The position numbers and the translations under genes were made by a program. 64,000 bases of DNA from Dictyostelium discoideum (lineage: Eukaryota), in the NCBI GenBank assembly GCA_000004695.1, contig CM000153.2:5120001-5184000 (forward strand). The letters run 5' to 3'. A model generated the notes under the pieces. That model searched no databases, had not been told where the DNA came from, and saw only the letters and a program-made list of their open reading frames with translations. Below, piece by piece: positions 22,082 through 54,833 of this stretch (its first letter is position 1; each line of letters begins with the position of its first letter).

Positions 22082-22278
22082 TTAATGTAAACCAATTGGT
22101 TTATATTGACTATCTCTTTTAATTTTTCTTGCAATTAAAACAACAACAACTGATATTATAATAACAGCACCAATAACACCAAGAGAGATTCCAATTTTTT
22201 CAGCTTTTGTTAAAACATGTGGAGAATTTCCTTTTGAGGTTGGTTGACTGGTTGAACTTGAACATTGAACATTTTCAA

Positions 22279-22309
<31 letters not shown>

Positions 22310-23794
22310 GTTGATATTAAATTTGATATTACATGAATTCTTATCAGAAAGGCAATTGATACCATAATTATTATAATCACTTGTTTTTTGAACATTTAAA
22401 AAAACAGTTGAATTTATAGTTATGTTTGAAGAACCACAAAATATATTTGAACCATTACCATTTATTAGTGGTGAACCATCAATTTTATTATCAATAAATT
22501 TAACATTATTAATAGAAATAGTGCAATTTAAATTATAAATTGAACCACCTAAACCATTTTTAGCAAAATTTTCATTAAAAATTGTATTGGAAATGGTTAA
22601 ATAATTACTACTTTGATTTGTACCACATTGATCTATATAAATTGCACCACCATTTTGAGCATGATTATTTGTAAAAGTACAATTGTTGATAGTTGCTTGG
22701 TTATTCAATAGTGTGATTGCACCACCAACATTATTAATGTAGTTATTAATATTGTTATTTTCAAATGAACATGAATCAATTACTGATTGACCTCCATTCT
22801 TTAGTAAAATAGGTAAAGTGTTTAAAGTATTAACAAAGTTACAAGATGAAAATGAACTCGTTGCACTTGAGTCACCAGATATTTGAATGACAATTCCACC
22901 ATATGTATCAGTGACATTAACATTACTAAATTTGAAAACTGGTATACTTGGAGTAGTTGTAGAAGTATTGTTGTTATTATTGGTTTTAATTAGATAAATT
23001 GAATTATTTGAACTACCACCAGTAATAATTGTATTGGAAATTGACAAGAAACCATTATTGATCATTAATATACTACCAATATCATTGGAAACAAAATTTA
23101 AAATATTTGAATCTTCAATTGTAAAAATAATTGGTATGCCATCACTATAAATAATACCACCAACTGCATTCACAAGTTTAGTGTTGTTAAATGTTGATTG
23201 AATGATTGAAACGGTACTATTTTTAGTTGATGAAGGTGAAGGTAATGGTAAATTATTTTTTAAAAATGCAAAAGTTCCACCTACATGATAAGCAGCGTTT
23301 CTGTAAAATGAGCATTTTGTAACTGATAAATTTATTAAACTTGAACCATTCACTAATACAACAGATCCATCAGATAAACCATTCTTAAATGTTATACCAT
23401 AAAAAGTAATATTATTTACATCTAGATTACTCTTTATTTGAATATTTATAAATGGGTCTATTAATTCTGTTAAATCTAAAAATACATTTGGTGCAATAAT
23501 ATCTGGTGAGGCTGAATTTATTATTGAAATGGTTTTATTTGTAATTTCACCAAATGTTGTTTTTTCAACATTATAATACCCTGGACTGATTGTCATTAAC
23601 ATTTCAGAGAATTGGCCACAATTTGAAATTGACTGTGAAATTGTTGAACAAGGATTATCTGATGTTCCACAATCATTTGAATCTGAATTTGAATCTGAAT
23701 TAACAAAAGTATTACAAACCTGACAATTTACAAAGCCAATTAAAAAATTTATAATAATAATTAAAAAAAACAATAAGTAATTGTTTTTCTTCAT
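22082..23794 (-). CDS. Type I membrane protein with a parallel beta-helix ectodomain carrying Chlamydia PMP-like repeats (GGAI/GGSI and FxxN motifs)
   Basis: Signal peptide (MKKNNYLLFFLIIIINFLIGFVNC). Repeated motifs: GGAITLLNNQATINNCTFTNN, NGGAIYIDQ, GLGGSIYNLN. A poly-Asn run is present. A C-terminal TM helix (ISLGVIGAVIIISVVVVLIA) is followed by a short basic tail. Confidence 0.7.
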
Positions 23795-24134: not shown

Positions 24135-25250
24135 TTATGCATAGTTGACTGTAGAAGTAATTAATTCATTTGTTAAAAATGTTGCATAGGAAAAAGGAAA
24201 GCTCTTATATAATTTTCTATATCCTTGAGTTTTTACTAAATTAGTTGCTATTGAGATTGGATTAGTTGACAATAAATTAACAGAATTACCAAGATAACGT
24301 TGAACGAATAAAAAAGACAATTGACAAAGAACTGTTTCGCATGGAACGATAGCCAACGTTCTTAAAAAGGTTTTAGCGTATATTGATTTAATTATGAGTG
24401 TTGAATTTCTCCAAAATGTTGATTTTGGATTCTCTAATGATTTAGATTCGACATATTCAATTAATATATTATGTAATTTATTTACAATACCCTTTATAAG
24501 TCTACCTGTAGTATGCATCGCAACTGATGAAATAAAAGCGTAGGCTTCATTTTTAAAATTTAATTTTCCAGTTACCCCATCTTGACAAAGTACAACTTTT
24601 TTAATTAATTCCAAAAATGATAGTTTGTTGGCAGTTTGTATATAACATTCAAGTGAGAATGCAACAAATGATGTATAACACCATAGAATTTCATCCATTA
24701 ATTTACCCATTGTTGAGGATGGATAGATTAATTCATCCTTTAATTTAAAAAGTGGTCGTAGTAAGGAAGGAGCAAAGGTTTGTGCTAAAATGATTTTACC
24801 TAATGAAAATGCATTATTATTTCTATTGAATGATTGAAGAACTCCAAGTGAGTTAGAATAACTTGGAGTTGTATTTATAACAAATGAAGCTATTTTAAAT
24901 CTTGCTGCTAAAATTCCCATAATTGAGAGTAGGGTATGATTTTTTTGATTTAATGATTTAAAGTATTCAAGTTCAAAGGTGACCATCTCATCATGTATTT
25001 CTCTATCATAATAATCCCTTAACCTTTTATCTGAAATTACTGAATAGGCCGCATCGAAACTCTCTGTTTTTTGTTTATCATTTTCGAAATTACTTCAAAC
25101 TTTTTTATTTAAATGAGCAATTTTATCGATAGTATCTTCTTTTTTAACTCCTAAAAATCTATAAAGTTCACCACAATGACATTCATGTGTTGCATAAAAT
25201 ATTTTTACTTTATCTTCTTCAGTAATTGGAAAAATTTGTGTATCTTTCAT
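24135..25250 (-). pseudogene. Paralog 1 of the J-like/tripartite-repeat family, carrying an in-frame TGA (25095-25097); it is either a pseudogene or a base-call error
   Basis: The minus-strand reading frame from the ATG at 25250 reads MKDTQIFPITEEDKVKIFYATHECHCGELYRFLGVKKEDTIDKIAHLNKKV, then TGA, then SNFENDK...MVTFELEY... It is collinear and in frame with paralogs 2 and 3 over its whole length. ORF 24135..24986 is only the part downstream of the stop. Confidence 0.55.
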
Positions 25251-25532
25251 TTATTTATTTATTTTTTTTTTTTTTTTTTTTTTGTTTAAATTATAATGTA
25301 TAATAATAATGATTCTGTTTTTTTTTTAGATATTTTTTGGAAAATTGAGTTGATTTTTTTAAAAAAATAAAACCATCATCATAATTTGTTGTAATCATAA
25401 TTAGTTAATAGAAAAATAAAAAAAGAGGGTTACACTCTTATTAAAAAGTACTCAAAATCATTTTAATTTTAAAGTTTAAAGAAAATTAATTTTATTATTT
25501 ATTTTTAGGTTTATTATTATTATTTTAAAAAA

Positions 25533-26657
25533 TTAAAGGTCTGTTGATATATTAGAAATAAGGTATTCTTCTAATAAAAGGGAGATATAAGAAAATGGTA
25601 AAGATTTATATAATTTTCTATATCCTTGAGATTTTACTAAATCAACTGCTAATGAGATTGGATTGATTGATAATGATAGAGTTGGTTTACCAAGATAACG
25701 TTGAACATATAAATAAGAGTATTGAGAATGAATTGCTTCATATGGAACGAGGAACAATGACATAAAAATACTTTTAACGTATATTGATTTAATTATGAGT
25801 GAGTTTCTCCAAAATGTTGAATTTGGATTCTCTAATGATTTCGACTCAACATATGCTTCAACTTTATTATAACCAATTCTTAAGAGTCTACTTAATGCGT
25901 ACATTCCAAATGATGAAATAAAAGTGTAGGCTACATTTTTAAAATTTAATTTTCTAGTTACCCCATCTTGACAAAGTACCACTTTTTTAACTACTTCCAA
26001 AAACGATAAATTGTGTGCAGTTTGCATATAACAATCAAGTGGGAAGGTTATAATAAATGTAGAGAGATAGGAAACAATTTCATCTGTTAATTTACCAACC
26101 ATTGAGAATGAATAGGTGTATTTATCCTTCAATATAAAAAGTGGTTGAATTATCATTGCAAGAGTTGAAGGAAGCATTGCTTGTGTCAAAACGATTTTAC
26201 CTAATGAAAATGCACTATGTTTTTTAATGAAAGATCTGAGAATTTGAAGTGAACTAATTGATGGTGGACTTGGAGTTGTATTTATTACAAGTGAGATTAT
26301 TTCCAATGGTGCTAATAAAGCTCCAATTGTTGAGAGTAGGGTTTGATTTTTTTGATTTAATGATTGAAAATATTTAAGTTCTTCTCTAACCATATCATCA
26401 TACAATTTTTCATCATAGTAATCTCTTAATCTTTTATCTGAAATTATTTCATATGCTGCATCCAAGCTGGCCGTGACTATTTCATCATTTTTAAAATTAC
26501 TTTTAATTTCTTTATATGTATGAGCAATTTTATCAATAGTATCTTCTTTTTTAACTCCTAAAAATCTATAAAGTTCACCACATTTATGATACTGAATTGC
26601 ATAACAAATTTTTTTAACATCTTCGATAGTAATTGGGAAAATTTGTGAATCTTTCAT
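25533..26657 (-). CDS. Paralog 2: N-terminal degenerate J-domain (no HPD) plus a C-terminal tripartite Px[DE]-repeat membrane-like domain
   Basis: The 374-aa ORF has YRFLGVKKEDTIDKIAHTYKEIKSNFKNDE...AYEIISDKRLRDYYD, a J-domain helix II-III pattern with FKNDE in place of HPD. Three PLE/PLD/PYE motifs follow at about 90-100-aa spacing, each after a hydrophobic stretch. Confidence 0.65.
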   Translation of the reverse strand: MKDSQIFPITIEDVKKICYAIQYHKCGELYRFLGVKKEDTIDKIAHTYKEIKSNFKNDEIVTASLDAAYEIISDKRLRDYYDEKLYDDMVREELKYFQSLNQKNQTLLSTIGALLAPLEIISLVINTTPSPPSISSLQILRSFIKKHSAFSLGKIVLTQAMLPSTLAMIIQPLFILKDKYTYSFSMVGKLTDEIVSYLSTFIITFPLDCYMQTAHNLSFLEVVKKVVLCQDGVTRKLNFKNVAYTFISSFGMYALSRLLRIGYNKVEAYVESKSLENPNSTFWRNSLIIKSIYVKSIFMSLFLVPYEAIHSQYSYLYVQRYLGKPTLSLSINPISLAVDLVKSQGYRKLYKSLPFSYISLLLEEYLISNISTDL

Positions 26658-27351
26658 TTGTTTTTATTTAATGTTAATAATAATTGATTTATTTTCTTTT
26701 TTTTTTGATTAAAAGTGAAAATAAAAAAAAAAAAAATTTTTTGTTTTTTATTAGATATTTCCCAAAAAAAAGATATTTATGTGGGGTAAGCCATAATTTA
26801 TTTTATTTTTTTTTTAAAAATTAAAAACAAAAAAAAAAAAAAAGAATTGTTGTGGAAATAGAGATAAATTAATTAAAAAAAAAAAAAAAAAAATTAAATG
26901 ATTTTGAAAGGGAAACAATAGTTTTACTTGATTGATAAAAGGAAAATGATAAATAAGGTAATGATAACTCGAGTGATGAAAAAATTACTTTAAAAGAGAA
27001 TGAAGATTATGTTATCAATCAAGAACAAGACAAGAAGAAATCATGGTTACTCGAGATATGGAAATTTAATGAAGATTTAGAATTCATATGACGGTAAAGA
27101 AGATGGTGTTTATTATGAAATGGACAAGATGGTGATGAAGAGGATGAAGAATTTAAATAATTATGTAAAAAATTATGTTTAATTCTAAAATGTGATTCAA
27201 AAAAATGCATTATTTCAATTCAATTTGAGTTTAACTTAATTTTTTTTATTTATTGCAATTTTTTTTTTTTTGTTTTTTATATTTTCTATTGTTTTTATAT
27301 ATTTTGAAATTTAATATTTCAGGAATTTTCCAAAGATGGATGGTAAAAATA

Positions 27352-27778
27352 TTAAACAGTATTGCAAGTCAAAACAGTTGAACCTTTGTTTGTTAAGGTT
27401 AATTCAAATCCTCCAAAACTACGGTCATATTCGCCAAAGTCATTAAATGTATCCTGTTCAGCTGGTGAGACTCCAGCTTGCATTTGAATTGTACCAACAC
27501 CACCCCCATCAACTTCACAATTAACAACTGTTGGTTTTGTTGCCCATGTTGGCTAAAAATATATAAAAAAATAAAAAAATAAAAAAAATAATAAATAAAA
27601 GGTTAGGATTTTAAAATGAAATAAATATATTATAAAATTTAATAAAATTTACAATTGATCCTTGAGATTGTCCTGGTTGTAAAGTCCATGGTCTAAATAA
27701 TAATAATTTTAGGTTATTTATTAGATACAATTTCAATTAAAAATGAAAATTTTTTTTATCTTTATATTACCCAGCCAT
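27352..27778 (-). CDS. Small three-exon gene (83 aa) not in the ORF track; exons 27778-27771, 27692-27653, 27552-27352
   Basis: The minus strand reads ATG GCT GG, then a GTAATA intron (78 bp, ends TTTAG), then exon 2 encoding (G)PWTLQPGQSQGSI, then a GTAAAT intron (100 bp, ends TTTAG), then exon 3 encoding PTWATKPTVVNCEVDGGGVGTIQMQAGVSPAEQDTFNDFGEYDRSFGGFELTLTNKGSTVLTCNTV and TAA at 27352-27354. Phases are consistent (2, 0). The region is less AT-rich than its surroundings. Confidence 0.45.
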
Positions 27779-28726
27779 TTTTTATTTAATTTTTTAATTT
27801 ATTTAGAAAATTTTAAGATGTTAGAAAATTTTATAATTATTTAATTTTTAATTATTTAATAAAAAAAAAAAAAAAAATTTAAATATTTTTTTTTTTTTTC
27901 TCAAAAAAAAAAATCAAATTTTAATTCTTAAAATAAATAATTAAAATTCAAACAATCTATTTTTTTTTGGGCATTATAAGAAAAGATTATTTTTTATTGT
28001 GATTTTGATAAGTAAGTTGGTTCTTCTCTAAACAAAAAATAGAAAAGAGGTTTTGTTTTTAAGTTTTCTCCACAAAATATTAAAAAAAAAAAAAAAAAAT
28101 TTATTTTTAACCAAAACTTTCCAAATTAGATTTTTTTTTTTGGGTGAATTTGGCAATTTTTTATTTTTTAAAAAAATTAAAATAAAAATAAAAAATGGTT
28201 GTAAACGTGTTGTTTAAATTGACTTTTAGTACTCTTTTTTTTTATTAATATTATTAAATAATTCCAATTTTTTATGGGCATTATTAGAATTTATTTTGTA
28301 AATATGGTAAAAATCATTTTTATGTTTTTTTTGTTTTTTTTTTTGTTTTTTTTTTTGACCAGTTAGGTGTCTCTTAATTATCCAAAAGTTTTTTTTTTTT
28401 TTTAAAAAAAGGCATTATTTGCAAATGATAATTCAAAAAATAAAATAAAAAATAAAAAAAAATAAATGCCACAATTTTAATTTGTTATGACTTTAAATTT
28501 ATTTTTTTCTTTTTTTTTATTTTTTATTTTTTATAATTTTTATGATTAATGCTTTTAACAAAATACCACAATTTAGAAACACTTTTAAATATTTATTTTA
28601 ATTTGATTTTGCTTGGAACTGGTTTTAATTTTTTGTGATAATAAATATTCACTTAAAAAAAAAGTTTCACAATCTTTATTATAATATACTAATAAATCCT
28701 TGTTTTTTTATTTATTAATTTTAAAT

Positions 28727-29869
28727 TTATTCTGAATATTCTAAATCTCCTTTTAAAAAAGAGTATACAAATCCTTCCAATAAATGTATTAAATAGGAAA
28801 ATGGTAAAGATTTATATAATTTTTTAAATCCTTGGGTTTTTACTAAATCAACTGCTAATGAGATTGGATTGTTTGTTAATATTTGAACTGGGTTACCAAG
28901 ATAACGTTGAACATATAAATAAGAGTATTGAGAATTAATTGCTTCAAGTGGGGCTAGAACCAATGACATTAAAATACTTTTAACGTATACTGATTTAATT
29001 AAGAGTGCGTTTCTCCAAATTGCTGAATTTGGATTCTCCACTGATTTCGATTCGATATATCCTTCCAATTTATCAACTCCAATTCTTAAAGTTTTACTTA
29101 ACACATAAATTCCAAATGACGAAATAAAAGTGTGGGCTAAATTTTTAAAATTGAATTTTCCAGTCACCCCATCTTGACAAAGTACAACTTTTTTAATCAC
29201 TTCAAAAAATGATAAATACTTTACAGTTTGTACATAACATTCAATTGGAAATATAACAATGAATGATGAAAAGTAGTTTATAATTTCATCTGTAATTTTA
29301 CCGGTTTTAGAGAATGGATATGCGAATTTATCTTTTAATCTGTAAAGTTGTTGTTGAACCAATATTCCAATAGTTGATGGAAGAACTGCTTGTGCTAAAA
29401 AGATTTTACCCACTGATAAAAACCCATTATTTTTAAAGAACGATTGAAGAATTTTCATTGAACTAACTGATGATGACGAATTTGGTGCAGTGTGTATAAT
29501 AACCGATACCATTTCCAATGGTGCCAAAGCAGTTCCAACCATACTGAGAAGAGCATTATTTCTTTTACTTATTGATTGATTATATTCAAGTTCTATTCTT
29601 ACCAACTCGTTATAAAAATTTTTATCATAGCAATCTCTTAATCTTTTATCTGAAATTATTGAATATGCCACATCTAAACGTTCAAGAGTCATTTTATCAT
29701 TTTCAAAATTACTTCTAATTTCTTTATATGTAAGAGCAATTTTATCAATAGTATATTCTTTTTTAACTCCTAAAAATCTATAAAGTTCACCACATTGACA
29801 ACCATCAAAGGCATAAATAATTTTATCAACATCCTCTTGAGTGATTTGAAAAATTTGTGTATCTTTCAT
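28727..29869 (-). CDS. Paralog 3: the same architecture as 25533..26657
   Basis: The 380-aa ORF is collinear with paralog 2 and roughly 60% identical by eye (MKDTQIFQITQEDVDKIIYAFDGCQCGELYRFLGVKKEYTIDKIALTYKEIRSNFENDK...AYSIISDKRLRDCYD...PLEMVS...FPIECYVQ...APLEAINSQYSYLYVQRYLG). Confidence 0.65.
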   Translation of the reverse strand: MKDTQIFQITQEDVDKIIYAFDGCQCGELYRFLGVKKEYTIDKIALTYKEIRSNFENDKMTLERLDVAYSIISDKRLRDCYDKNFYNELVRIELEYNQSISKRNNALLSMVGTALAPLEMVSVIIHTAPNSSSSVSSMKILQSFFKNNGFLSVGKIFLAQAVLPSTIGILVQQQLYRLKDKFAYPFSKTGKITDEIINYFSSFIVIFPIECYVQTVKYLSFFEVIKKVVLCQDGVTGKFNFKNLAHTFISSFGIYVLSKTLRIGVDKLEGYIESKSVENPNSAIWRNALLIKSVYVKSILMSLVLAPLEAINSQYSYLYVQRYLGNPVQILTNNPISLAVDLVKTQGFKKLYKSLPFSYLIHLLEGFVYSFLKGDLEYSE

Positions 29870-30411: not shown

Positions 30412-32456
30412 TTATTTTCCTCTTAATTGATTCCTTCTATGTTTAAAAATGATAAACATTCCAATAAAGATGCAAACCAAATTGAAAACAAAACTTAAAA
30501 TAAAACATGTTCTAAAACAATGAGTTCCATGACACTTTTCTCCATCTACTGATAAACTATCATAAATCTTACTGCTAAATGTGCTAAAGGCAAGTGATGC
30601 TGATGCTGATGAAATTGCCAACTAAAGAAAAAAAAGTAAAATATTAATATTTTAATTTTAAAAATAAAAAAAAATAAAAAAACAAATAAAAAAATAAAAA
30701 AAAAAAAAGAGAGAGAGAAAAAGGAAAACTTACAAAACCGAAATTAATACCAAATCTTCTTGGACCAAATCTTAAACTTGTTAATGATACCATAATTGAA
30801 ACCATTCCACCATAACCAATTCCAGTAATTATAGTTGCTGGATAAAACAAAGCATCTAATTCAAATGAAATGATTAAATGAGTTAAAGAGAGTATAAAAC
30901 TAGATAGAACAACGCACCAGAATCTAGAATATTTTTTAGATCTATTAAATAAATAAAAAAATTTAAAAAAAATTAATTAATTATAATGTTAAATAAATAA
31001 TAGTAGTAAATAATTCCAAAAAATAAAATAAAATAAAAATAATACAAACATAAAATCAGATAATAAACCATTTCCAGCTCTACCTGTCAAATTACTACAT
31101 GCGAAAATAATAACAAGATCACTATAATATGTATATTAATTAATTAATAACAGTTTAATTTTTATTTTTTTTTTTATTTATTTACATGTAATTAGTTTTT
31201 ATTAACAAACATACCTATGAATTGAAGATGGTCTATTAAATGCTTGAGCCATAACTGCAATATTATTTAAAAACATTAAACTAGTACCTGCTGCAAAGAA
31301 ATAAATAATCCACATTAACCAAAATTCCCATTGCTTTAATAATTTTAAACCTGAAATATCTCTTCTACCTATAAACATTTAATAATTTATTATTTGTTAA
31401 TAATGAAAAGAGAGAGGAAAATAAAATAATAATAATAATAATTTTTTATTTACCATCTAAATAATTTGGATTTCTTTCTACATCTAAATCTGCACCTATA
31501 GCTGCAACCTCATCAAAATCTTCGATTTTGTTTAGTAATTTATAACTAGAAGAATCTAAACTATTATTATTATTAGTAATATTATTAATTAAAGTTTTTA
31601 ATTTACCTCCTTTTTTTTGCATATTAACATCACTACTATTTAAGTCACCACTACCCTTGTTATTATCACTACTACTACCACTACCACTACTAGAGGTACC
31701 ATTCTCCTCATCAATTCCAATGTTGCCACCATTTGTAATAGAATTACCACTTATTGTTAGATCTTCAGTACTTTGGTTGAATTGATCACTTAATTTTTGT
31801 TCTTTTTTATCAATTGAATTATCAAGTTGATCAGCATCATCACTATCACTTTGAATTTCTGGTTCTTCGACACCCTCAACCTTTACAACTCTAACAATAA
31901 ATGCTGAAATAAATGCAACAGAACTAAGGAGAATGGCTAAAAATAATAAATATCCTTCGACATCATTATTCTTTTTAAATGTTGATTTATAAATAATACC
32001 AAAAATACCCGATGATAATGCAAACATACCAACTAATATACCTCCAATCTAAAATAAATAAATAAAATAAAATACAAATAAATTGATTAATATTTTATTA
32101 TTATAATAATAATAAATAATAATAAATAATAAATAATAAATAATAATTACCTTTCCTCTATGTTTAATTGTATAATTATGAACATTTGGAACGATTGAAG
32201 CTGTAAATGTTGCATGTGAAGCTTGACCAACTAAAAATAAAAAGAATGATAACAAGTATACATTGTTAATTATTGTACCCTTTAAAATACCCCAAACACC
32301 CATATATCCAATGATATATAATACTGTTGCTAACAATGATGTATAAAATGGTCCGAATAAATCAAAGAAATACCCAACTGTTAATCCAATGTATCTATAT
32401 TTAAATTAATAATATGAGTTAGGAATTTGGAGAGAGAGAGAGAGAAGAGAGAAGAG

Positions 32457-48271: not shown

Positions 48272-48354
48272 AGCAAGGGTAGGAAAGTCTGGTTAAATCC
48301 GTGTGACTTAAGATCTCATCCATTCGGTTCGCGAGTTCGAATCTCGCCTCTTGC
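48272..48354 (+). tRNA. tRNA-Leu (anticodon UAA), class II with a long variable arm, 83 nt, no encoded CCA
   Basis: Manual cloverleaf fold. The 7-bp acceptor stem GCAAGGG/CTCTTGC includes one G-U pair, with discriminator A. U8 and A9 are present. The D-stem is 3 bp, with GG in the D-loop. The anticodon loop is CTTAAGA (anticodon TAA, U33 present), on a 5-bp stem with one U-U mismatch. The variable stem-loop is CC-ATTC-GG. The T-arm is GCGAG-TTCGAAT-CTCGC. Confidence 0.8.
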
Positions 48355-48391
48355 AATGTTTTCTTAATTTCAATTATTCGATTATTGGTTC

Positions 48392-49197: not shown

Positions 49198-50721
49198 TTA
49201 AGAACAATAATTATCCCAATTAAAATTAATAACATTTGAAAAGAGAGATTTAAAAAGTTGATAATTACAAAAGATATCATTACAGCCTGGTATTAAAATT
49301 GGTGATTCATTGTGTTCAACCAAAATTTTAAAATCATTTTCTCCACCACAATCATATAAAAACATTACTAAATTTGTAGAGTAAGGAACTATAACACTTG
49401 TTTTAAAATTTCTATTAATAATTTGATTTGAAGTTAAATTTGCAAATAAATGGTATTCATCTTTAAATAAACCCAATAAAGACATTAATGGTATTACAGT
49501 TTCTGAATGAGCAAATCTTAATATATTTTTTGGATATTTATTATTATCAATTGAAAATTCATCATTATTTTCTTCATCTTTATTATCATTATCACTATTA
49601 CTATTATTATTACTATTATTATTTAAATTAATTATTGAATCAAAATGATTAAAAATATCTTTTAATAATGGTGAAGAAATTTCATAATTAATTTTATTAC
49701 CATAACTACTTAACCAATAATCATCCAAATCTTTTGAATATTCTAAATCCAAAATATTTTGTTTATTTAATAGACTACACCAATGATTTGTAATATTTCC
49801 AATGGCAACATCATAAACACATGATAAAAATATTGTATTAATTATTGAATTTGAAAGTTCCCAATCATTGAGATTTGAATTTGGTATACCTAATCTTTTT
49901 TTAATTTCAATTCCAATTGATGGATATTTCATTTGTTTCCAAATTTCTCTTTCATTGTCATTAATTGATTGATCTCGTAAAGCATTGTTATATTTATCAC
50001 AATTTAAAAAGAAACTTAGTAAAATATCTTTATCAAGTGTTGAAGTTTCAATATGAACCGGTTGAAAATTATCACCCAAAACTCCAGTTCCTTCAAATAA
50101 TCCATAGGCGAAAGATGAAGCACTAACTCCAGTACGAGAAATAATAGTTGATGAAATCTTTGTAGTTTGTGGTTTATAATTTCCAAAATAATTTGGAAAT
50201 CTTTTTAAAAATCTTTTTGAGAGATGGTAATGTTCCAATTGGCCTTGAGTTAATAAATTTCCTGCGATTTCAATTTTATAAGGAACAGTGTAATTTTTTA
50301 ACCAACCAAATTCTCCATCATTTTCAATGTATTTATTAATTTTTAAAATTTCATTTTGTAATTTTTTCATTTTTTTAATAACAGATGCTTCTGGCATTCT
50401 TGAACCATGACGACCAATAAAATCAATTGAAATTAATTTACATTGTTGTTGTTGTTGTTTAAAATTATTATTATTATTTTCATCTTTTTTTATAAAATGA
50501 TTTGATTTATAATATGGTGTTTTAGTTGTTAAATGTTTAATTAAAAAATTAAAATCATAATTTTGATATTCTCCAAATGTTATTTCTTTTTGTTTTTGGA
50601 AAATATCATTATTAATTTTAATTTGATTAAAAACTTTTAAATTATTTTTTTCAATTTGGCACCATATTAAATTAAAATTTATTAATAAATAAATAAATAT
50701 TATTAAAAAAATAATTTTCAT
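49198..50721 (-). CDS. Secreted histidine acid phosphatase (histidine phosphatase superfamily branch 2, MINPP-like)
   Basis: Signal peptide. RHGSRMP matches the RHGxRxP catalytic signature (IGRHGSRMPEAS). The C-terminal HSET resembles the HD/HAE proton-donor motif (RFAHSETVIPL). Intronless, 507 aa. Confidence 0.75.
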   Translation of the reverse strand: MKIIFLIIFIYLLINFNLIWCQIEKNNLKVFNQIKINNDIFQKQKEITFGEYQNYDFNFLIKHLTTKTPYYKSNHFIKKDENNNNNFKQQQQQCKLISIDFIGRHGSRMPEASVIKKMKKLQNEILKINKYIENDGEFGWLKNYTVPYKIEIAGNLLTQGQLEHYHLSKRFLKRFPNYFGNYKPQTTKISSTIISRTGVSASSFAYGLFEGTGVLGDNFQPVHIETSTLDKDILLSFFLNCDKYNNALRDQSINDNEREIWKQMKYPSIGIEIKKRLGIPNSNLNDWELSNSIINTIFLSCVYDVAIGNITNHWCSLLNKQNILDLEYSKDLDDYWLSSYGNKINYEISSPLLKDIFNHFDSIINLNNNSNNNSNSDNDNKDEENNDEFSIDNNKYPKNILRFAHSETVIPLMSLLGLFKDEYHLFANLTSNQIINRNFKTSVIVPYSTNLVMFLYDCGGENDFKILVEHNESPILIPGCNDIFCNYQLFKSLFSNVINFNWDNYCS

Positions 50722-51362: not shown

Positions 51363-51593
51363 TTATTTTTGTTCTCTTAATTGTTTATATAAATTTGTAG
51401 TTATATCCAAACGTTTTTGAGCATTTTCGAATTTGGTATTAGCTTCGGCAAGGGAGGCTTGTAATTGTTTATTTTGATTTGAGATGACATCATAACGAGC
51501 TTTACCTTCATCGATTTGATCTTGAAGAGATTGAATATCATCAGCTTTAATTTCACCATTACCATTAGCATTACCATTTTCAGTGTTACTGTT

Positions 51594-51624
<31 letters not shown>

Positions 51625-54437
51625 TTAATAATATTATTTAAATCTTGAATTTGAGTTTTTAATTGATCGATTTCAGTTTGTTTTTCAAAAGTAACAGATA
51701 AGAACTCAGCGTTTTTATTTTCTAAATCTTGTTGTATTTGAGAAACCTTTGAATCTTGTTCAGATTGTTTAGAGGTAATTTGTTGTAACTCTTGATCCTT
51801 TGAAGTTAATTCATCTTTAACAGATTGTAACTCTTGATCTTTTGAAGATAATTGATCTTTAGTTGATTGTAAATCTGAATCTTTTGAGGATAATTGATCT
51901 TTAACTGATTGTAAATCTGAATCTTTGCTTGATAATTGATCTTTAATTGATTGTAATTCTGAATCTTTTGAAGATAATTGATCTTTAGATGATTGTAACT
52001 CTGAATCTTTAGTTGATAATTGATCTTTAATTGATTGTAATTCAGAATCTTTGCTTGATAATTGATCCTTAGTTGATTGTAACTCTGTATCTTTAGCGGA
52101 TAATTGATCAGTGGTTGAAGATTGACAAGATAATTGATCTTTAGCAGATTGTAACTCTTGATCTTTAGTTGATAATTGATCTTTGGTTGATTGTAACTCT
52201 TGATCTTTTGAAGATAATTGATCTTTAGTTGATTGTAATTCTTGATCTTTTGAAGATAATTGATCTTTAACAGATTGTAAATCAGATTCAATTGATTTAA
52301 TTTGAGTGTCTTTATTTGATAATTGTTCATCTTTTGAAGATAATTGATCTTTGGTTGATTGTAATTCTTGATCCTTTGAAGATAATTGATCCTTAACAGA
52401 TTGTAAATCAGATTCAATTGATTTAATTTGAGAGTCTTTATTTGATAATTGTTCATCCTTTGATTTTAATTCTGAATCCTTGGATAAAAGTTGATCTTTT
52501 ACACTTGATAATTCTGAATCAGTGTTTGATGATTGTGATGAGAGTTGTTCCTTAACACTTGATAACTCTGACTCTAAGCATTTCAATTGTTCATCTTTTG
52601 AAGATAACTCTGAATCTTTTGATTGTAATTGTTGTTGTAAATTGAGTTCAATAGATTTCAATTTTTCATCTTTTGACTCGTTATGTTCTGATTGTTGTTC
52701 AAGTTGAGATTTAACATCTTGTAATTGTTGAAGAGTTTGTTGTAAAGTGAGTTCAACAGATTTCAATTTTTGATCTTTTGATTCACTATCTTCAGATTGT
52801 TGTTCAAGTTGAGATTTAACATTTTGTAACTCTTGATCTTTTGATTGTAATTGTTGGAGGGTTTGTTGTAAATTGAGTTCAACAGATTTCAATTTTTCAT
52901 CTTTTGATTGACTATCTTCAGATTGTTGTTCAAGTAAAGCAGATTGTTTCTTTGAAGTCTCAAGTAACTCTGAATCCTTTGATTGTAATTGATTTTGGAG
53001 TTTTTCAAATTCAGATTGTAATTGGCTCAACTCGGTGATCTTTGATTGTAATGCTTGAGATTCAGTGGATTGATTAGAGGCGAGTTGTTGCTTCAATTGA
53101 CTGATTTCATTTTGTAAATTATTGGTGGTGGTTTGTTGTTCAGATTGTTTTGCCTCTAATTGGTCAACGAGTTTTTCAATTTGGAAATCTTTTTCATCAG
53201 TGATATTTTTATTCATTTTCTCGTACATCTCTAAACGTTCAAGCAATTCAGCTGTACGTTTCTTTTCGTCTTCGTAGGAACGAATCAATTCGGTCTCTTT
53301 GGTGGTGAAACCATTGGTGGCTCTGGTTAACTCTCCAATCTTGGTTTCTTTTTGTGATAATACATTGGTTAAATCATCGACTTTCTCTGTGAATGATGAT
53401 ACTTGTTGTTGAAGTATTACAATTTGTTGTTGATATTTTTGTACCATTATCTCCTTCTCTGCTGAAATATTTGAAAGTTCACTTTGTAATTCAGTGATCT
53501 CTTTCTTTAAATTGGTAGTAGTAGTAGTATTATTACCACCATTTAATGTATAATTATATTGTTGTAAATCATTAGTTGATTGATTAATTGGTGAATTTGA
53601 TTCTGGTGTTTTTTGTTGTGTGGTGGTTGATTTATTTAATTCGATTTGTTGTTCTAATCTCTTTATTTTCTCTAATAAAGTAGTTTCAATATTTTCTTTA
53701 TTGGTGATTTCTTTTTTGTGAGAATCATTCAATAAATTGATTCTAATACTTGATTGTTCTCTTTCTTTTTCAAGTTGATTCTTAATTTCATTGATACTGG
53801 ATTTAAGATTTGAAATTTTTTCAAATTCTGTTGGTGCTGTTTTAACTGTTTTCCAAGTACCATCATTAAAATTGGTTGGTTCTTCTTCTATAATGACATT
53901 TGTAGTGGTGGTGGTAGTATTTTTGATTGGTTGTTTTACTGGTGGTTGTTCAACTTTAGTTGCTTGTTTCTTTGGTGGTGGTTGTTCAACAACTTTCTTT
54001 GGTTCTGCTACTTTCTTTGGTTCCTCTACTTTCTTTGGTTGTTCGACAACTTTCTTTGGTTCTGCTGCTTTCTTTGGTGGTTGTTGTTTTTCAACAACTT
54101 TCTTTGGTTCCTCTACTTTCTTTGGTTGTTGTTCAGTGACAGCTGGTTTAACGACTACTGGTTCAACTACTTTTGGTGATTCAACCTTTACAGTTTCTGA
54201 TTTAACCTCAACTGGTTTGGATGGTTGTTCTTTCTTTTTCTTTTGAGTGGTTGTTTGTTTGGTTGGTTGTTGTTGTTGTTTTTTATTAGTTTTTGATTGT
54301 TTTGGTGTGTTGTTATTAATTGTTTGTTGTTTGGCTAATGCTCCATCAAATATACGTTTTGGTTTGACAACGAAAAATTGATAGAAAAAGTAACCTGCAA
54401 CACAAGCCACAACTGTTAAAACTAATGCTCCTATCAT
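51363..54437 (-). CDS. Membrane-anchored long coiled-coil protein with a Pro/Lys-rich PKKVEEP repeat region and about 20 tandem 14-aa KDQLSSKDxELQS repeats
   Basis: The 1052-aa ORF 51363..54521 begins in homopolymer-derived codons. The likely start is the internal ATG at 54437 (MIGALVLTVVACVAGYFFYQFF, a TM anchor). Heptad-rich coiled-coil sequence runs through the protein (LEKEREQ..., KIGELTRATNGF..., QLQSKDSELLETSKKQ...). Confidence 0.65.
51770..52570 (-). repeat. Tandem 42-bp coding repeats (KDQLSSKDSELQS[IVT]) within the coiled-coil gene
   Basis: The nucleotide units are directly visible (gataattgatctttagttgattgtaactctgaatctt and variants). They also create spurious overlapping ORFs on both strands (51806..52456, 52522..52707). 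Confidence 0.85.
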
Positions 54438-54833
54438 CACTTTTTTTTTTTTTTTTTGGTGAATAAAAAAAAAATAAATAAAAAAAATAAAAAAATAAAA
54501 AAAAAGTAAAAATATTAACATTTGAATGAATTCTTTTTTAAAATATAAAAATTAACAAACCTACCTTTTTTTTTTTTTTTTAATTGTTATACTATATTTT
54601 ATTACTATTAATATTTGTCTATATTGTTTTTTTTTTTTTGTTTTTTTTTTTGTTTTTTTTTTTTTAATATTTTCAGTTCCCTCACAAATATTTATAAAAC
54701 TTTTTTTTTAAAAAAAAAAAAAAAAAAAAAAATTGGTTAGTGATTTAATTTAATTTAACCCAAATTAAAAATAAAAAAAAAAAAATAAAAATAAAAAAAA
54801 CAATTTTATAAAAAAAAAAAAAAAAAAAAAAAA

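Follow-up and report, generated by a model that had tools for sequence, protein, structure and literature searches.

A tandem gene cluster of Dictyostelium discoideum predicted to join a J-like module to a non-transporting carrier fold

Introduction

What might a protein do that pairs a carrier-like fold lacking the residues of both transport gates with a J-like domain lacking its HPD tripeptide? This question is raised by three homologous, collinear units on the minus strand of Dictyostelium discoideum AX4 DNA, here called copies 1 to 3 in order of position (Table 1). They lie within the window, by which we mean the whole 64-kb stretch that was analysed (contig CM000153.2, positions 5,120,001 to 5,184,000; guanine-plus-cytosine (GC) content ~22%). 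Our best explanation, which we consider probable as a whole, is that the locus holds a tandem array in which two genes are intact and one is decaying. Its products would most likely be non-transporting carrier-fold membrane anchors displaying an Hsp70-inactive J-like interaction module, in a Dictyostelium-restricted family.

In J-domains a hairpin of helices II and III is flanked by helices I and IV, and the HPD tripeptide lies in the loop that joins II to III. Established J-domain biochemistry holds that a J-domain without HPD is unable to stimulate the Hsp70 ATPase. Mitochondrial carriers have six transmembrane helices, arranged as three tandem repeats of ~100 amino acids with three-fold pseudo-symmetry. 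The mitochondrial carriers of the SLC25 family are defined by Px[DE]xx[RK]xxxQ on the transmembrane helices with odd numbers (H1, H3 and H5) and by [YF][DE]xx[RK] on the even-numbered ones (H2, H4 and H6) (PMC12410006). The salt-bridge networks formed by these motifs are integral to alternating access and make up its two gates (PMC12410006).

Results

A sequence-only reading of this DNA had proposed three collinear paralogous genes on the minus strand, roughly 60% identical to one another. The coordinates proved exact, tblastn found exactly three copies in the window and no fourth, and pairwise identities among them are 55-64% for protein and 72-78% for nucleotides. The count of genes needs amending, as copies 2 and 3 are intact open reading frames (ORFs) whereas copy 1 contains an in-frame TGA and is not open.

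The N-terminal ~85 amino acids of the copies had been read as J-like with the HPD replaced, and both statements were borne out. This half aligns to J-domains, with END (copies 1 and 3) or KND (copy 2) at the HPD position, and a family profile matched solved J-domains in the PDB at E = 8e-5; the closest sequences are class A/B/C J-domains, for example DNAJA1 and dnj-12. Against Pfam DnaJ (PF00226; gathering cutoff 27.8 bits) copy 2 scored 14.8 bits and copy 3 scored 12.8 bits, both below the cutoff. In the AlphaFold model the J fold is made of helices 29-33, 41-53, 59-73 and 75-84. Just before J helix I lies a conserved C-x-C-G-E-L-Y element, found at residues 24-26 of copy 3 (~29792-29800) and in the paralogs, of which C26, G27 and E28 are nearly invariant; within the carrier domain Cys211 is invariant and Cys231 nearly so. 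Cysteine motifs are typical of intermembrane-space proteins.

For the C-terminal half a tripartite, carrier-like layout had been suggested, and several lines of evidence agree with it. Two template-free AlphaFold2 models, built from 16 and 23 sequences with a predicted local distance difference test (pLDDT) score of 73.8 and 82.8, respectively, both gave a six-helix bundle with short helices between the long pairs. The model helices span residues 86-127, 137-180, 188-215, 242-278, 294-323 and 355-379, the continuous first helix joining the J-like domain to H1. When these models were compared with the PDB by Foldseek the top 12 and top 13 matches were all mitochondrial carriers (probability 1.0). 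By sequence, copy 3 reached 20.9 bits against Pfam Mito_carr (PF00153; gathering cutoff 22.3 bits), and copy 2 and the copy 1 ORF gave no match. Repeats 1 and 3, scanned singly, scored 13.4 and 13.9 bits at matching profile positions, and repeat 3 of a Dictyostelium firmibasis member (P0013) scanned alone exceeded the cutoff at 23.5 bits. Repeat 1 was aligned to repeat 3 by hhalign (E = 2e-5), the match covering P-x-[DE] and the motifs of the matrix helices. A three-repeat organisation is predicted in this way, repeat 2 being recognised in the modelled fold only. In addition, a broadened C-terminal profile matched only carriers among PDB sequences at E <= 10 (UCP2 at 0.005, GGC1 at 0.027), the alignments running over P-x-[DE] as well as G-x-x-G-F-[FY]-[RK]-G. 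Structure prediction is thus carrier-like, and the copies are not ordinary annotated carrier genes. The Pfam comparison, which the sequence-only reading had put forward as a check, divided: the window copies stay below the DnaJ and Mito_carr cutoffs, and Dictyostelium relatives exceed both.

While the fold appears to be kept, the motifs that define transport are largely gone. In copies 2 and 3 alike Px[DE] occurs exactly three times, starting at residues 117, 206/208 and 305/307 with spacings of 89-91 and 99 amino acids, so that the proline and the acidic residue are present on all three odd helices; the [RK] at +5 and the glutamine brace are present on none. Similarly, a regular-expression scan found [YF][DE]xx[RK] at the end of none of the three even helices in either copy, the only matches lying elsewhere in copy 3 (FENDK, in the loop of the J-like domain, and FEVIK, in one of the matrix helices), with no match in copy 2. 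The matrix-helix motif [DE]Gxxxx[WYF][KR]G is matched exactly in no family member, although degenerate forms occur, in the third repeat of the window copies as QGF[KR]KLYKS and in the first repeat of P0021-P0023 as G[IV]xGF[FY]RG. A complete Px[DE]xx[RK] is present at most once in any family member; PxExxR survives in repeat 3 of several relatives, that is, on H5 only, and the wider family lacks the acidic Px[DE] residues on H1 and H3. The earlier claims of three Px[DE] motifs per copy and of a missing basic residue in Px[DE]XX[KR] therefore hold for copies 2 and 3; they fail, respectively, for copy 1, which has lost the first two prolines, and for the relatives that retain PxExxR. Because the gate networks are lost in copies 2 and 3, classical alternating-access transport by these two proteins is unlikely, as judged from their motifs.

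The family extends beyond this cluster. When 1.84 billion representative sequences were searched exhaustively by HMMER with the C-terminal profile, nine proteins scored E <= 0.001, all from Dictyostelium, one of them already known and the other eight new and more distant. Alignments of these distant relatives to the window copies run nearly from end to end (E = 1e-15 to 1e-21), and textbook carrier motifs are kept, for example G-[IV]-x-G-F-[FY]-R-G in the first repeat and P-L-E-V-I-R-S-Q-Y in the third. Four relatives exceed the Mito_carr cutoff (P0017, 24.3 bits; P0023, 25.1 bits; P0021, 32.2 bits; P0022, 38.1 bits). A true HPD J-domain is found in two, Dictyostelium dimigraforme ACTA71_005901 (59.2 bits) and Dictyostelium purpureum DICPUDRAFT_77012 (71.3 bits), and in the motif alignment HPD occurs in the family only in P0019 and P0021. 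The fusion of an active J-domain to a carrier is therefore the ancestral state, from which the window subfamily derives as a branch without HPD; the ancestral architecture, a true HPD J-domain with a recognisable carrier domain, persists in DICPUDRAFT_77012 and ACTA71_005901. AX4 itself has at least six members, namely the three window copies, DDB_G0287215, DDB_G0289991 and DDB_G0285611. Two word-index profile searches added no member from outside Dictyostelium and also missed known members; the last of them returned an ADP/ATP translocator fragment. As far as these profile searches reach, the family is restricted to the genus Dictyostelium and wider than the cluster in the window.

No paper on these genes or on a J-domain/carrier architecture came up when the literature was searched by topic and by the identifiers of genes and proteins, and a paper on the dictyostelid carrier family mentions neither J-domains nor these genes (PMC5007236). 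The sequence-only reading had likewise not recognised a described family. Database labels do exist, however: family proteins are automatically labelled 'J domain-containing protein', and two members from D. purpureum already carry DnaJ plus Mito_carr in precomputed Pfam annotation.

Copy 1 illustrates how members of this family are lost. Its in-frame TGA is codon 52, a position filled by Arg or Lys in the paralogs. The public model (DDB_G0286975; P0015, 322 amino acids) splices out an in-frame GT..AG 'intron' made up of codons 15-63, a stretch that contains the TGA and is homologous to J-domain coding sequence. A second, independent annotation (ACTFIT_005136; P0027, 358 amino acids) removes 13 codons instead and so skips the TGA; that this codon is shared by two annotated D. 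discoideum records speaks against a read error. In addition, copy 1 has changed at six positions that do not vary among the other 15 subfamily members (L65F, P117R, P208S, V224L, Y255H and L305I), among them the H1 and H3 prolines, which are those of the first two Px[DE] motifs. By comparison, its close relatives have 0-2 changes at subfamily-invariant positions. Copy 1 is a pseudogene-like remnant, and its locus looks like a young pseudogene; the gene model of DDB_G0286975 is corrected accordingly. Its nearest relative is DDB_G0287215, an intact AX4 paralog on a different contig (82% identity). P0009 had been considered as the ortholog of copy 1 and was dropped, as the P0009 cluster contains DDB_G0287215.

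The remaining copies appear to be maintained. Ortholog ratios of nonsynonymous to synonymous substitution rates (dN/dS), calculated by the NG86 (Nei-Gojobori) method, are 0.41 for copy 3, 0.52 for copy 2 and 0.60 for copy 1, as compared to 0.20 for a neighbouring gene. In most ortholog comparisons the ratio lies significantly under 1 for the J-like domain and for the carrier domain alike (p down to 2e-6), and each of the two is under weak purifying selection (dN/dS 0.4-0.5). In comparisons with dS of 0.17-0.43, the reading frames of copies 2 and 3 and of their orthologs are still open over the full length. Among 16 aligned subfamily sequences 48 columns are invariant, and P117 and P307 are nearly invariant or invariant. 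The family is fast-evolving yet maintained, while individual copies die, as with AX4 copy 1 and a truncated D. dimigraforme copy.

The cluster is also found in related species. In Dictyostelium cf. discoideum three copies directly follow one another, 385 and 233 bp apart, and in Dictyostelium citrinum there are two; in both species a major facilitator superfamily (MFS)/nodulin-like gene lies upstream and a gene of ~550-560 amino acids immediately downstream, with two further genes between the MFS gene and the cluster in D. citrinum. In D. dimigraforme two family genes, ACTA71_011478 (P0012) and ACTA71_011477 (P0018), are numbered consecutively and apparently adjacent, and P0018 (277 amino acids) is truncated within the carrier domain and has a long Asn-rich N-terminal extension. 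Adjacent and partly truncated copies of this kind point to repeated birth and death in several species, and we infer that local duplication gave rise to the cluster and that its copies continue to be gained and lost.

Discussion

How, then, might such proteins work? In the window subfamily HPD is replaced by [EK]ND, and the three helix-kinking prolines and acidic Px[DE] residues are kept. The carrier fold would act as a membrane anchor or scaffold rather than as an alternating-access transporter, by analogy with other inactive carrier-fold proteins. Carrier topology would place the J-like domain where carrier termini emerge, in the intermembrane space or the cytosol. As a J-like domain without HPD is unable to stimulate the Hsp70 ATPase, it would most likely be a protein-protein interaction module. 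One possible role, again by analogy, would be to pair with a true J-domain partner, as Tim16/Pam16 does with Tim14/Pam18. Inactive carriers that serve as structural proteins have precedents (PMC12410006).

Several findings weigh against this anchor reading. The window copies fall under the Pfam cutoffs for both domains; repeat 2 goes unrecognised in the Mito_carr scan and is much more diverged in hhalign; and the Foldseek matches have modest E-values (~1e-3) with template modelling scores (TM-scores) of 0.43-0.58 normalised to the target. It could be argued from the low Mito_carr scores, from a repeat 2 that is unrecognisable by sequence, and from a narrow subfamily C-terminal profile that matched no carrier among PDB sequences with hmmsearch, that the likeness is spurious, an unrelated helical membrane domain having been forced into a bundle by AlphaFold. 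We regard this as very improbable in view of the five family members over the Mito_carr cutoff (four full-length relatives and repeat 3 of P0013 alone), the broad profile that draws only carriers from the PDB, on carrier motifs, and the translocator fragment returned by the word-index search. A different objection is that the ring of three conserved acidic residues may point to some remaining function related to ions or substrates. The proteins would then still be transporters or channels with unconventional gating, for example cation-selective through E119, E210 and E309 (copy 3) at the matrix gate. The presence of Px[DE] on all three odd helices in nearly all of the 15-member subfamily, the constancy of P117 and P307, and a six-helix fold kept under purifying selection are what such proteins would display. 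This seems unlikely nonetheless, as copies 2 and 3 have none of the three basic partners, glutamine braces or even-helix motifs, no family member has more than a single complete Px[DE]xx[RK], and the missing networks are integral to alternating access (PMC12410006). Moreover, the lack of acidic residues on H1 and H3 in the wider family indicates that the acidic ring is not ancestral.

The substitution rates invite a more deflationary reading. At 0.4-0.6 the dN/dS values are high, and NG86 is approximate in a 22%-GC genome; the cluster might be evolutionary debris, a recent and dispensable family drifting to pseudogenes, with eroded motifs as a sign of decay. The nonsense codon and lost invariant residues of copy 1, the truncated tandem copy P0018, ratios of 0.4-0.7 that are two to three times the neighbouring gene's, the restriction to one genus and our finding no expression evidence for the cluster genes would all fit. 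Against this stand the frames of copies 2 and 3 and their orthologs, full-length and open at dS 0.17-0.43, the significant constraint on both domains, the 48 invariant columns, and an AlphaFold confidence that climbs with alignment depth, as for a conserved folded protein; we therefore hold decay of the whole cluster to be quite unlikely. Topology raises the last difficulty. To our knowledge no Hsp70 resides in the mitochondrial intermembrane space, and inner-membrane siting would put the J-domain of the HPD-bearing relatives in just that compartment, which calls the topology into question. The termini of divergent SLC25 members of the outer membrane can face the cytosol, where a J-domain would be meaningful. 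The family could accordingly be imagined as a lineage-specific organellar surface machine, a fused receptor/insertase in which a carrier fold in the outer membrane (or that of another organelle) bears a cytosolic J-domain that could dock Hsp70-bound precursors, with a function like that of Tom70 or MTCH2; the HPD-less window copies could then be regulatory partners, as Tim16 regulates Tim14. Alternatively, one chain could join, as a new accessory subunit of a Dictyostelium respiratory complex, the carrier and J-domain subunits that are separate in Tetrahymena. Drawn from analogy, this pair of ideas is speculative and on balance improbable.

The window proteins may be set beside known systems. 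Like the SLC25/PF00153 carriers, for example the ADP/ATP carrier and UCP1, the window proteins are predicted to form a six-helix bundle from three repeats of ~90-100 amino acids, with a kinking proline and an acidic residue on H1, H3 and H5 and with short matrix helices, the G-x-x-x-[FY]-[KR]-like motif being best kept in repeat 3. Unlike them, they lack the salt-bridge networks on the matrix side and on the cytoplasmic side as well as the glutamine brace, fall under the Pfam cutoff, carry an N-terminal J-like domain, and are genus-restricted and fast-evolving. The inactive oxoglutarate-like carriers of Tetrahymena (7w5z, 8bqs and 8b6h), in which a carrier fold serves as a non-transporting structural element of the respiratory chain (PMC12410006), were top or near-top structural matches at 11-15% identity, with no specific sequence relationship. 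In addition, 7tgh_J1, a DnaJ-domain subunit of Tetrahymena complex I, was among the best matches to the N-terminus. In Tetrahymena, however, carrier and J-domain protein are two distinct chains, while the Dictyostelium proteins unite both kinds of domain in one.

Other members of the superfamily offer partial parallels. MTCH1/MTCH2, SLC25A46 and yeast Ugo1, in the outer membrane, are likewise carrier-derived, have lost transport motifs and fill non-transport roles; unlike the window proteins, none has a J-domain. The MTCH proteins are described as holozoan and as having lost one transmembrane helix, which leaves a lipid-facing hydrophilic groove (PMC12934571). The Dictyostelium model, by contrast, keeps all six long helices, and the sequence match to an MTCH2-UCP1 chimera was insignificant (E = 1.4), so that the window proteins do not belong to the MTCH group. 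AGC1/2 and APC/SCaMC also place an extra folded domain ahead of the carrier domain (PMC12410006), although there it is an EF-hand calcium-binding domain on a functional transporter, in contrast to a J-like domain on a fold whose gates are gone. Among J-like proteins without HPD, Tim16/Pam16 and the chloroplast NDH subunit NdhU are familiar; unlike Tim16, the window proteins have a J-like sequence nearer to class A/B/C J-domains.

Carrier-fold proteins that no longer transport, such as MTCH2, SLC25A46 and the Tetrahymena complex IV subunits, form a recent and still small class, and a J-domain on such a fold is a domain combination that we found in no paper. It poses a puzzle, since carrier topology would direct the N-terminus into the intermembrane space, where no Hsp70 is known, and yet ancestral members keep a catalytically competent HPD. 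Siting of the proteins would reveal either a new coupling of Hsp70 to a membrane or the repurposing of a J-domain after loss of HPD. Furthermore, the HPD-bearing members, the HPD-less members and the pseudogene provide a natural series of domain decay in a tractable model organism.

Features of the locus and flanking genes

Table 1. Coordinates of the cluster, its parts and other features of the window (position 1 is the first nucleotide of the window)
Feature	Position	Strand	Remarks
Copy 3, DDB_G0286977	28727..29869	-	Intact 380-amino-acid ORF, stop 28727-28729; 100% identical to database entry
Copy 3, J-like domain	29615..29869	-	Residues 1-85; END at 29696-29704 in place of HPD
Copy 3, carrier-fold domain	28730..29614	-	Residues 86-380
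Copy 3, Px[DE] motifs	29513-29521, 29240-29248, 28943-28951	-	PLE, PIE and PLE, respectively
Copy 2, DDB_G0286955 / Q54L16	25533..26657	-	Intact 374-amino-acid ORF; identified by exact-sequence look-up
Copy 2, J-like domain	26403-26657	-	KND at 26484-26492
Copy 2, carrier-fold domain	25536-26402	-	Motifs PLE117, PLD206 and PYE305
Copy 1, DDB_G0286975	24135..25250	-	Degenerate, frame interrupted
Copy 1, in-frame TGA	25095..25097	-	Codon 52; from sequence read, translation and alignment
Spacer between copies 2 and 3	26658..28726	.	2069 bp; outside the family
Coding-like stretch in spacer	27355-27552	-	66 amino acids ending LTCNTV*; six-frame translation, local GC peak 0.40
Possible upstream exon in spacer	near 27611-27700		
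Acidic ORF fragment in spacer	near 26950-27160	+	
Downstream neighbour	22082-23794	-	570-amino-acid Asn/Ser-rich protein
Upstream neighbour	30412-32027 and beyond	-	Several short ORFs
tRNA-Leu(TAA)	48273-48355	+	Single tRNA gene of the window
Histidine phosphatase	49198-50721	-	His_Phos_2, 138 bits
Coiled-coil protein	51363-54521		

The sequence-only reading had placed a small unrelated gene between copies 2 and 3. Coding-like stretches without a family match are indeed present there, including a possible upstream exon and an acidic plus-strand fragment (Table 1); what separates the copies is nevertheless probably an insertion in the AX4 lineage, as the corresponding spacer of D. cf. discoideum is far shorter (385 bp; L001 11108-11492). 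The coding-like stretches gave no Pfam match, so their assignment to a known family was dropped, and the peptide has no counterpart in the D. cf. discoideum and D. citrinum loci. Output from blastn of the spacer was dominated by low-complexity matches only.

The downstream neighbour gave no Pfam match; by eye it has a signal-peptide-like hydrophobic N-terminus, and its C-terminus bears a hydrophobic anchor. Synteny is kept for this gene in both D. cf. discoideum and D. citrinum, and its ortholog dN/dS is 0.20. The short ORFs upstream of the cluster belong, by synteny with the related loci, to an intron-containing MFS_1/Nodulin-like transporter gene. AT-skewed stretches flanking the tRNA-Leu gene (46-48 kb and 52-54 kb) had been considered as retroelements and were dropped, being ordinary minus-strand genes, namely those of the histidine phosphatase and the coiled-coil protein listed in Table 1.

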